A stretch of 64,000 nucleotides of DNA, from positions 141 to 64,140 of the forward strand of contig JAHEEE010000007.1 of NCBI GenBank assembly GCA_024640845.1. The letters run 5' to 3'. Source of the DNA: Myxococcales bacterium. GTDB taxonomy: Bacteria > Myxococcota_A > Polyangia > Polyangiales > Houyiibacteriaceae. Shown here piece by piece: positions 45,871-47,270 of this stretch (position 1 is its first letter; each line of letters starts with the position of its first letter). The translations under genes were made by a program, and so were the position numbers. The notes under the pieces were generated by a model. It saw only the letters and a program-made list of their open reading frames with translations, did no database searches and was not told where the DNA came from.

Positions 45871-46452
45871 CTACCCCAGAATGCGGAAGAACGACCGGAG
45901 CATCTGGTAAGTCAGCCCCCAAACGACCCGGCCGTCGACGTCGTAGGCTGGGAAGTCGATCTGCGTGCCGTGCCACTGGTACGGCCGGATCGTGTCGGCC
46001 TCGCCACGATACAGCGGCAGGAGCGGCGTCCATAGGGCTTCGGCGACTTCCTTCTCGTCAGGTCGAATCGGCGACTCGCGGTGCACTTCGAACACGAAGG
46101 GGCGGATCACGGTCTCTTGCGGCTTTCCACGCGCGATCGCTTGAAGATCATCGAGCTGCCCGATGTGGTCGGCCTCGGCGAGAAGATCGAGCCCAACCTC
46201 CTCACGGGTCTCGCGAACCGCCGTATCCAAGAGCGAATGATCGTCGGACTGCCGACGGCCGCCCGGAAACGCCATATGCCCGGACCATGGGTCGCTCGGA
46301 TGCTCTGCCCGGCGGATGAAGAACACCTCCGGCCCCGCCGCGCCATCCCGCAACAACATCGCTACGGCCGCCCACTTTTCGTGCTCCGCAAGCTCCCGCG
46401 CCGCTCGAGCTTCGAGCACATTGCGAACGTCTGGAAGGCCGATGAGCGTCAC
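45871..46452 (-). CDS. NUDIX hydrolase (CoA pyrophosphatase-like)
   Basis: WSGHMAFPGG...TAVRETREEVG. Confidence 0.92.
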   Translation of the reverse strand: MTLIGLPDVRNVLEARAARELAEHEKWAAVAMLLRDGAAGPEVFFIRRAEHPSDPWSGHMAFPGGRRQSDDHSLLDTAVRETREEVGLDLLAEADHIGQLDDLQAIARGKPQETVIRPFVFEVHRESPIRPDEKEVAEALWTPLLPLYRGEADTIRPYQWHGTQIDFPAYDVDGRVVWGLTYQMLRSFFRILG

Positions 46453-46524
46453 GCGGATCCGCTAGCACAGGTAAGGCTCAGGGTCAGTCTGCATGCCGGT
46501 GCTGGTGAACGCGGTTGGCGTCGG

Positions 46525-46732
46525 GAGGTTTAGTTACATCCGACCCGCCCGGCCGCCTTCGGCGTCTGTTGGTCCCGCCCCACCGCCCCCACACTATCTC
46601 CTACCCCCGCCGCGTAGTCTCAGAATCACTCTCACGCGAGTGAACAGCGTGCCTCCGCGCGCTTTGCTTCGCTCGGGCTTGGCGGCGCTTCGCGCCGGGC
46701 TTCGCCCTACGGGCTCGCGCTGCCGCGCATGT
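46525..46732. repeat. REP-like dispersed palindromic element, copy B (longer)
   Basis: Matches copy A in GGTTTAGT, CCGCGTAGTC and the 53-nt core; reads GTAGGGCG on the - strand. Confidence 0.75.
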
Positions 46733-46796
46733 GTTGGGGAATGGTTTTGCATACATACAATGCCGCAGCCCTTCTGATGCACAGAGTCGTCCATAA

Positions 46797-46980
46797 GGGG
46801 CTCGGAAAAACGCGACAGGGGGTGGAGCGGGCGTACGAAGTGCCAATCGCAAGACAGCAACCACCGCGATTGGCGCGCTGTCCGAGGGCGGCTTGCGCGG
46901 CCTGACCTACCCAGTCCTCCGAGGCCGCATCTGCAAGTCGCCCGTCCCGTGAATCCCCCTGTCGTGTTTTTCCGAGACCC
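46797..46980 (+). ncRNA. 184-nt structured element (candidate ncRNA, or MITE-like)
   Basis: 26-nt terminal inverted arms (46797-46822 / 46955-46980) enclose hairpins 46840-46876 and 46886-46943; four of five non-Watson-Crick stem positions are G.U on the + strand. Confidence 0.55.
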
Positions 46981-47027
46981 GCGTGCACCTCGACGCCCGG
47001 GCGTTCAGCGTAGCGACCGTCTTCCAG

Positions 47028-47270
47028 TTAGTCGACGATTTCGTAGTGGAAGTCTTCGATAACCGGATTCGCCAAAAGTTTTTCGCACATCGATTGGATG
47101 TGGCTCTCGGCGTTGGCGCGGTCGTTGCCGTCTAGCTCGAGCTCGATGAGCTTGCCGACGCGGGCGGACTTCACCTCCTCGAACCCGAGTGAGCTCAGCG
47201 AGCGGCGGACGGCATCGCCTTGAGGATCGAGGACCTCGCGCTTCAGTGTCACGAAGATATTGGCTTTCAT
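47028..47270 (-). CDS. purS: Phosphoribosylformylglycinamidine synthase subunit PurS
   Basis: [12 protein letters not shown]...VGK...[14 protein letters not shown]; start MKANIF overlaps purC stop. Confidence 0.95.

Follow-up and report, generated by a model that had tools for sequence, protein, structure and literature searches.

What is the strongly folded sequence that lies between purS and a NUDIX hydrolase gene in an uncultured member of the Polyangiales: an RNA gene, a retron, or a mobile repeat? We addressed this question for a window of 64,000 nucleotides (nt), the whole stretch of DNA analyzed (positions 141 to 64,140 of contig JAHEEE010000007.1, assembly GCA_024640845.1, Myxococcales bacterium). 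An initial annotation, made from the sequence alone, had singled out window positions 46797-46980 as a branched structured element, probably an RNA on the + strand, and had offered three identities for it: a new class of noncoding RNA (ncRNA), an orphan retron-like RNA, or a MITE (miniature inverted-repeat transposable element). Here, we report that this sequence, hereafter element H, is one copy of a small, noncoding, dispersed, and insertion-polymorphic repeat family. Our best reading is that H is a non-autonomous element, akin to REPINs and MITEs, for which the folded single strand, be it single-stranded DNA (ssDNA) or RNA, is the form that spreads or acts.

A discrete unit with a branched fold

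The architecture first described was recovered when the sequence was reread. H forms a three-way junction closed by a 26-bp stem, the arms of which (46797-46822 / 46955-46980) make 24 Watson-Crick pairs, one G.U, and one G.A. The arm sequence starts with GGGG, and the two ends of H read GGGGC... and ...GCCCC(GGT). Inside the core, a purine-rich 4x4-5 internal loop leads to a 5-bp junction helix (46827-46831 / 46946-46950) and to two hairpins, one at 46840-46876 with the conserved loop GCAAGACAGCAAC and the other at 46886-46943. As RNA, the + strand has a predicted minimum free energy of -114.9 kcal/mol, compared with -73.5 +/- 4.6 kcal/mol for 200 dinucleotide shuffles, none of which folded as well (z -9.0). 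The minus strand also folds (-105.8 kcal/mol, z -7.3), and DNA parameters give -65.3 (+) and -60.2 (-) kcal/mol; with these parameters, too, the fold is highly significant (z -8.9). H encodes nothing. It belongs to no family in Rfam 15: a covariance-model search gave zero matches over H even at E<=10, and nothing in the whole window reached the gathering score. These negatives cover 6S RNA, Y RNA/YrlA, HEARO/omega-RNA, IS605-orfB, group II introns, and the other families of Rfam 15.

Copy number and host range

The window genome (G000; 4.14 Mb in 145 contigs, 95.6% complete) carries about 40 copies of H in two subfamilies, one with 91-100% identity at 184 nt and the other with 81-85% identity at 186-187 nt. 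Many of them are located at contig ends, and in the DNA run from the source sample, sequencing depth was 300-545 over the repeat and about 10 over flanking genes. Related genomes contain 20-65 copies each. One of them, G005, with about 65, includes a subfamily of about 240 nt in which the interior has been swapped for an unrelated hairpin and the stem and junction have been kept. By BLAST, H was found in 19 of 24 genomes of the genus at 73-77% identity, and because these matches cover exactly the 184-nt hairpin, we treat that span as a discrete unit. The copy-number check proposed with the initial annotation therefore came out on the side of a mobile miniature element in the broad sense, and the option of a single syntenic ncRNA falls with the many copies and the insertion-polymorphic loci described below. 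A single-locus regulator of purS or the NUDIX gene is likewise excluded by the copy number together with empty orthologous sites.

H extends well beyond the genus. A covariance model (R1), built from 53 copies, scores the window copy at 177 bits over model positions 1-189. Among 121 genomes of the order, 26 contain full-length matches to R1, and these hosts belong to 11 of the 64 genera sampled and to at least five other families. A pattern scan of species-representative genomes placed the hosts among uncultured Polyangiales/Myxococcota metagenome-assembled genomes (MAGs) from sediments and soils, with "Myxococcales bacterium SG8_38," CP070713.1, and Microflora Danica bins as named examples. 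A 21-base pattern from the H core had one exact match beyond the Myxococcota, in locus L170 (OY759986.1, Aggregatilineales, Chloroflexota), which could reflect chance or horizontal transfer.

Filled, remnant, and empty sites

The gap between the purS stop and the NUDIX start is a hot spot. In the window it holds a mosaic of repeat modules of about 500 nt (46505-47004; Table 1), so that H does not stand alone there but sits inside a block; purC is also among its neighbors. In an alignment of the orthologous region (A2), eight genus genomes have only about 5 nt at this site, and the window copy is for that reason an insertion. The spacer is 30-70 nt in other genomes. It holds a single small hairpin of the AAAAGGGGACAGTCCCCTTTT type in G024, and modules A-B-C plus the second structured repeat E2, in place of H, in G011. 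In G023, the position that corresponds roughly to window 46460-47025 is taken by a RAYT-like Y1 transposase gene with the motifs NHFHLVL and RYVERNPVRA, situated between AAAAGGGGACAGTCCCCTTTT hairpins (L222, G023:C15:392800-394490). Judged by this arrangement, the AAAAGGGGACAGTCCCCTTTT small hairpins, rather than H, look like the cognate REPs of that RAYT (REP-associated tyrosine transposase).

Two further orthologous loci present empty, remnant, and filled states. At the first, convergent stop codons are separated by 9 nt in G023 and by 45 nt in G016; in G019, a solo 3' arm is added to those 45 nt, and G005 has a full mosaic that ends 9 nt from the stop codon. At the second, G005 and G019 hold a solo 5' arm followed by A-C-H, G023 retains only CGGGGCGCGGCGGAACGCG|CCCCGG, in which a CGCG microhomology marks the junction between a 5' arm and the final 6 nt, and G020 has a bare palindrome, AACCGGGGCGCCCCGGTT. 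Collapsed or solo-arm derivatives were also seen exactly between convergent stops, for example GGGGCGC-TTTTTT-CCGCGCCCC (L234:1600-1640, G023:C12). Such derivatives may be footprints of excision or deletion, with the potential to form terminator-like hairpins.

Target-site duplications (TSDs) were absent at either candidate boundary in 80 copies and in the filled, collapsed, and empty orthologous sites, which extends to the family what had been noted for the window copy. For the position of H relative to genes, 100-nt flanks proved too noisy a guide to stop-codon proximity, since noncoding left flanks score too, and we relied on aligned loci and on open reading frames (ORFs) filtered by GC content at third codon positions (GC3). 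By these crude ORF calls, about half of the copies in the window genome lie between convergent genes, and the stop of the downstream gene is typically 38-72 nt from H.

Selection on the folded + strand

For a test of selection on the fold, 53 distinct copies taken from six genomes were aligned (A3). RNAalifold recovered the three-way junction with 62 pairs, 29 of which have compensatory double changes (299 cells), compared with 16.4 pairs and 88 cells in shuffled alignments. Paired cells amount to 98.8% (shuffled, 89.2 +/- 0.3), and the covariation score is 0.291 (shuffled, 0.118). None of 500 shuffles reached any of these measures, and a control in which the 3' partners were slid gave at most 8 pairs. 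In the closing stem alone (helices 1-2), 14 of 25 pairs show double compensatory changes, and in two distant families (f14 and f3) the sequence of this stem is entirely different and its pairing kept.

The mismatches point to one strand. The initial annotation had noticed in the window copy that wobble pairs are G.U on the + strand and would be A.C on the minus strand; in A3, G.U outnumbers A.C by 237:5 over 23 pair positions, an asymmetry of 47:1, and an earlier, larger set gave 367:40. Standard pairs make up 98.8% of the alignment when it is read as the + strand and 91.7% when it is read as the minus strand, and at alignment columns 50/88 nearly every copy (51 of 53) has a U.G pair. Because random decay of a double-stranded inverted repeat would yield G.U and A.C equally, we conclude that selection acts on the + strand as a single strand. 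The claim of selection on a + strand RNA thus stands as far as the single-stranded fold goes, a fold that may be one of RNA or of ssDNA. Strings conserved across the order, GGCGUC.CGAAUGCCAA, UUGGCAUGAG.GCCGAGG, CUUGC...UGCAAG, and CCGUCCCC, all belong to the core. Taken together, the covarying stems, mismatches that are almost only G.U, and the kept junction core indicate that purifying selection maintains the H fold on the + strand, a three-way junction whose closing stem measures 20-26 bp across the family. A stem that is rewritten around a retained core is the reverse of what is expected for a terminal inverted repeat (TIR) bound by a transposase.

How H may spread

H represents a family of structured, non-autonomous repeats that is new, extends across the order, and is under selection in the form of its folded + strand. 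As its most likely mode of spread we favor, with modest confidence, a REPIN-like one through an ssDNA hairpin and a trans-acting enzyme. H would then be a selfish element mobilized in trans, the active form of which is the folded single strand rather than a double-stranded TIR to which a DDE transposase binds. Most likely, a DNA hairpin would be extruded or exposed on one strand, and a host-encoded enzyme specific for structure would cleave it at the foot of the closing stem, the point at which both ends of H meet. The excised H would be pasted just downstream of stop codons, as in REPINs and in the "peel and paste" of the IS200/IS605 type. Decay or excision would account for the solo arms and for the collapsed hairpins, in which the 5' arm and the last ~6 nt are kept. 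Read-through transcripts of H would fold as well, and under this model H may plausibly serve, in a secondary role, as a 3'-end barrier or terminator for RNA where genes converge.

The search for an enzyme or parent element was negative. TnpB (PF07282) is absent from the window genome, with control genomes positive, and IscB was not separately searched; a TnpB/IscB omega-RNA-bearing IS200/IS605 derivative was accordingly discarded as a candidate for lack of TnpB. A self-BLAST repeat inventory revealed no insertion sequence (IS) sharing the H ends in the window genome, which has almost no IS-like repeats, and the only multicopy coding unit in that inventory is the 23S_rRNA_IVP four-helix-bundle gene. 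An arm-pattern scan combined with self-BLAST found no autonomous parent in the three genomes covered (G000, G005, and G023). Inverted arm pairs in G005 and G023 are all 100-350 nt apart except for one 1.3-kb pair, which was rejected as a parent because its arms are remnants, unrelated to each other, that enclose a tRNA gene and a zinc-ribbon gene.

The window genome has a single Y1 (HUH) transposase ORF (C81:14124-14780, 218 amino acids), located between an mglA-like GTPase gene and leuS. It scores 55 bits on NF047646, below the 80-bit cutoff, a weak likeness to RAYTs. No repeats flank this ORF, and no copy of H lies beside it. Most genomes of the genus, and another family as well, contain orthologs of it (46-67% identity), and 37 of 47 genus genomes have a member of the Y1 family whether or not they carry H. 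From its context, the ORF appears to be domesticated. A RAYT partnership was rejected on both flanking and co-occurrence, the latter retested with the Y1 protein itself.

Several observations weigh against spread of H as an ssDNA hairpin. The search yielded no enzyme, and the RAYT-like Y1 gene is not flanked by H. A search with the Y1 protein found no homolog in the H-rich genomes G047 (99% complete), G061, and G070, and the H-free genome G008 has one. IS200/IS605-type targeting of the lagging strand predicts an orientation bias relative to GC skew, and the orientation of H showed no association with skew in the window genome, where skew is weak. H-like contigs occur in at least four metatranscriptome assemblies, as contigs without strand. 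Finally, a conserved interior with variable ends, the near-invariant U.G, and purine-rich loops (GAA/UGA) are more typical of functional RNAs than of transposon ends. Copies of H on the same contig tend to share a strand (G052 contigs C7, C4, C6, and C10, with 5/5, 5/5, 3/3, and 3/3), and the strand switches along G042:C2; this pattern might reflect the replichore or local arrays.

Could H be an RNA first?

The strongest alternative, which we regard as possible and clearly less likely than mobility as ssDNA, holds that H is primarily a functional structured RNA, either a multicopy ncRNA or a cis-acting module, transcribed on the + strand from its own promoter or by read-through. Processing of the long closing stem, perhaps by RNase III, would release or protect the three-way-junction core. 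That core would have a conserved host protein as its binding partner or would serve as a barrier or terminator at 3' ends, and multiplication in the genome would be secondary. The conservation pattern argues for this alternative: covarying stems with junctions and loops kept across the order, the wobble asymmetry and the near-invariant U.G described above, and purine-rich internal loops are all in keeping with an RNA family. So are the H-length contigs of the four metatranscriptomes, one of which, at 197 nt, covers positions 46795-46991, and the head-to-head copies in other families, which turn their 5' ends to a shared spacer as divergently transcribed genes do.

Evidence on transcription nevertheless tells against it. 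Neither the window copy nor distant copies have a called sigma-70-type promoter upstream. The TACAAT at 46756-46761, pointed out initially, does exist, but it is private to the window copy (the family consensus is CACACT), has no sigma-70-like site, and scans for a conserved promoter of the family were negative. There is no terminator after H. The window copy is antisense to both purS and the NUDIX gene, as first stated, and orientation relative to neighboring genes varies among copies. The metatranscriptome contigs carry no strand, and assemblies break at repeat boundaries; their depths over H fit copy number multiplied by read-through or by DNA carryover. In three small metatranscriptomes from the MAG's own samples, thin data in which two single-copy genes were seen, none of about 30 H copies was detected, nor was module C, which argues against an abundant, stable H RNA. 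An RNA role further sits poorly with the ~240-nt subfamily and its exchanged interior, and it leaves the spread of copies in the absence of a reverse transcriptase (RT) unexplained.

We give less credence still to H as a new class of order-wide structured "replicator" with a functional three-way-junction core, whether a mobile element without a transposase or a cellular multicopy ncRNA family. On the first branch, the core may bring in a host enzyme of universal occurrence for cutting and rejoining at the base of its own closing stem, or may itself take part in that chemistry; on the second, an ncRNA with a cellular role in the Polyangiales may simply happen to multiply. The head-to-head pairs of subtypes and the pairs of H and E2 may, on this account, be a functional two-part unit.

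A classical MITE, in which H would be a deletion derivative of an IS with a DDE transposase and double-stranded TIRs, the hairpin being a by-product, is improbable. H is small, noncoding, multicopy, and intergenic, it has 26-nt TIRs, and the GGGG start of its arms is, we presume, reminiscent of Tn3-family ends. Against this origin stand the lack of a TSD at any boundary definition, the lack of any ORF enclosed by H ends in the three genomes scanned, with almost no IS-like repeats in the window genome, and an order-wide pattern in which the TIR sequence varies and the interior is kept. Moreover, random TIR decay predicts equal numbers of G.T and A.C, at odds with the ratio observed, and the internal helices covary too. 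The MITE option of the initial annotation therefore survives in the sense of a mobile miniature element, given copy number and insertion polymorphism, and not in the textbook sense, given no TSD, no parent IS, and variable arms.

An orphan retron-type msr-msd RNA, templating multicopy single-stranded DNA through an RT in trans, shares with H long TIRs around stem-loops (a likeness in fold only), a similar length, and a myxobacterial host, and can be set aside as very improbable. The genome search for an RT that had been suggested found no RVT_1 (PF00078) in the window genome; in the genus, 40 of 47 genomes lack it, among them every element-rich one (G005, G023, G042, G047, G052, G053, and G057). 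Retron-associated effectors are missing from the context, and none of the 40-65 copies per genome adjoins an RT. The same absence rejects retrotransposition; H spreads without an RT.

Comparison with described systems

REPINs are inverted doublets in extragenic space that form hairpins and show compensatory changes; singlets occur as their remnants, about 6 bp of the right arm stay behind on excision, and tandem clusters are found (PMC3116915; PMC3733652). They are mobilized by RAYT Y1 transposases (Bertels & Rainey 2011, PMC3116915; PMC3337134), and they are the closest described system. Both are non-autonomous extragenic hairpin units in tens to hundreds of copies, with compensatory hairpin changes, a predicted ssDNA or mRNA fold, and no TSD; in both, solo arms remain as decay products, and roughly the last 6 nt of the right arm survive in products that look like excisions; and both occur in tandem clusters in which the unit is repeated together with its flank (379-nt units for H) and prefer sites downstream of genes and between convergent genes. 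However, H, at 185-195 nt, has about double the length and branches into a three-way junction, and it is conserved in the interior core, whereas REPINs are conserved in terminal REP 16-25-mers. H arms are not self-palindromic, with no REP palindromes at the ends, and the RAYT-like gene neither is flanked by H nor co-occurs with it; the RAYT copy of G023 is flanked by a different small hairpin, AAAGGGGAC-N-GTCCCCTTT. H thus shares the hairpin doublet with compensatory changes and lies outside the REPIN-RAYT system, having neither REP palindromes nor a cognate RAYT.

Among bacterial MITEs, the Correia elements of Neisseria and the ERIC/IRU elements of enterobacteria have RNA-level activity. Like H, they combine TIRs of about 26 nt with a whole-element hairpin and an intergenic location, and H can be likened to them further in that they are often cotranscribed with their neighbors and can be RNase III substrates or stabilizers. 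Correia elements have TA duplications, a transposon-like ancestor, and a conserved TIR sequence, whereas H has no TSD, variable TIRs, a conserved branched core, a one-strand wobble asymmetry, and different hosts.

Mosaic intergenic repeats are also known from CGTC- and GTAG-tagged REPs (Di Nocera et al. 2013, PMC3733652). Mosaics of the REP/BIME and BOX types resemble the block around H in their variable combinations of short modules (here A-B-C, H, E2, and a small palindrome), in their location downstream of ORFs and between convergent or unidirectional genes, and in units that are often close together in opposite orientation; some classes, like H, have no dedicated transposase. CGTC-tagged REPs share GACG/CGTC ends with the trailer palindrome of the window, GACGCCCGGGCGT(C), and with end extensions in G002, GACGTAAG...CTTACGTC, but the tag is inconsistent at H ends in other genomes, and REPs are simple palindromes of 20-40 bp, in contrast to a 185-nt multihelix fold with a conserved junction.

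Retron msr-msd RNAs (Mx162 and similar) have long TIRs around stem-loops, a length of about 150-250 nt, and myxobacterial hosts in common with H, which differs by having no adjacent or genomic RT, dozens of copies, and no effector genes. Integron attC sites and IS200/IS605 ends likewise show strand-specific folding conserved over sequence and no TSD, and they are recognized as ssDNA hairpins, to which H may be likened. Unlike attC, H has no GTTRRRY/RYYYAAC core sites, and its copies are dispersed singly between housekeeping genes and not in cassette arrays; attC identity was rejected on these two grounds, and intI was not searched. IS200/IS605 elements have two separate subterminal hairpins on one strand, as opposed to one whole-element hairpin, and TnpB is missing from the window genome. 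By what was found, H is not a classical MITE, a retron, a TnpB omega-RNA, or an attC site.

Surrounding modules and other architectures

The modules around H (Table 1) are shared among copies to different degrees. In the window genome, the flanks of H copies are conserved as well as H itself, and 23 alignments stop at 47004, with the purS stop codon 21 nt further on. Module C occurs in about 78 copies, and A-(B)-C is the most abundant repeat of the genome; C is often, but not always, directly 5' of H and is absent beside H in G002. Some metatranscriptomes show A-(B)-C at very high depth, 665 in the case of run X32. In E2, a closing stem of 13-15 bp (GGAGAATCGGTCG...CGACCGATTCTCC) encloses about 110 nt. 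E2 either replaces most of H, keeping the last ~55 nt of H and the trailer, or lies in reverse orientation directly upstream of H. Because E2 can stand in for most of H with the 3' end of H retained, we describe the repeats as mosaic. A Shine-Dalgarno-ATG look-alike at the start of E2 was rejected as a sign of coding potential, its ORF not being conserved between genomes.

Table 1. Features of the purS-NUDIX hot spot in the window, with locations of associated repeats elsewhere
Feature	Location	Strand	Remarks
NUDIX hydrolase gene	45871..46452	-	PF00293, 55.4 bits; start is left edge of hot spot
Repeat unit A-(B)-C	46505..46737	+	separable from H
Module A	46505-46550	+	C-rich; GGGGGTGGGCGGGTGG G-tracts on minus strand
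Module B, optional insert	46600-46651	+	
Module C	46652-46737	+	GCTTCGC-rich, small UUCG-type hairpins
Leader	46738..46796	+	common to H copies of window genome only; holds TACAAT
Element H, branched hairpin, 184 nt	46797..46980	+	fold z -9.0, genus BLAST span, covariance model R1, covariation
Closing stem 5' arm	46797..46822	+	pairs with 46955-46980
Conserved core	46823..46954	+	invariant columns in alignments A1, A3
Closing stem 3' arm	46955..46980	+	also found alone with trailer behind E2, and as solo remnants
Trailer	46981..47004	+	common to window-genome copies; ends in palindrome ACGCCCGGGCGT (46993-47004)
purS	47026..47270	-	PF02700, 109.8 bits; stop codon 47026-47028 is right edge of hot spot
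E2 copies	G000 C35:13912-14241, C56:36-360, C26, C31, C25, C71, C53, C135; L253 (G042)		
Hexamer microsatellite sites	G000 C93:41330-41480; L214 (G011); flanks of G005_46/50/56, G002_83-87 (A1)		L214 site upstream of module A
PF05635 gene copies	G000 C93:40771-41344, C57:15518-16466, C102:1366-2314, C105:1927-2821, C6:11000-11595		

Other arrangements were found in related genomes. A tandem array in G042 consists of three or more identical 379-nt units, each a reverse E2 followed by H (L253, G042:C4:415118-418064). In G076 and G070, which belong to other families, five of six loci hold two H subtypes head to head (L245-L249), the 5' ends facing a spacer of 120-400 nt with tandem AAAGGGGACGTTCCCCTTT hairpins. 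Hexanucleotide microsatellites, (GTCAGC)n, (GCCAGC)n, and (GCCAGT)n, of up to about 25 units adjoin repeat modules in several genomes. The four-helix-bundle gene of the window genome (about 110 amino acids; PF05635, 23S rRNA intervening-sequence protein, 64 bits) is present in at least five copies, each with an A-C module on one side and a hairpin plus a long hexamer array on the other; from this layout, the unit looks like a mobile cassette.

Implications

H inverts the usual logic of MITEs in that its interior is conserved and its ends merely covary, and its covariation, together with the 47:1 wobble asymmetry, provides clean comparative evidence of a mobile repeat selected as a folded single strand. 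Recognition of the family with model R1 would mean fewer false riboswitch, small RNA, or retron leads at each locus where H has landed. H also explains MAG fragmentation in this lineage, where many contigs end within the element. Collapsed copies leave GC-rich hairpins between convergent stops, and the family may in this way supply terminator-like structures. H poses the same question about movement as the CGTC-type REPs, and, persisting across the order without an RT, a transposase of its own, or a RAYT that tracks it, it offers a tractable case for the movement of "orphan" structured repeats.

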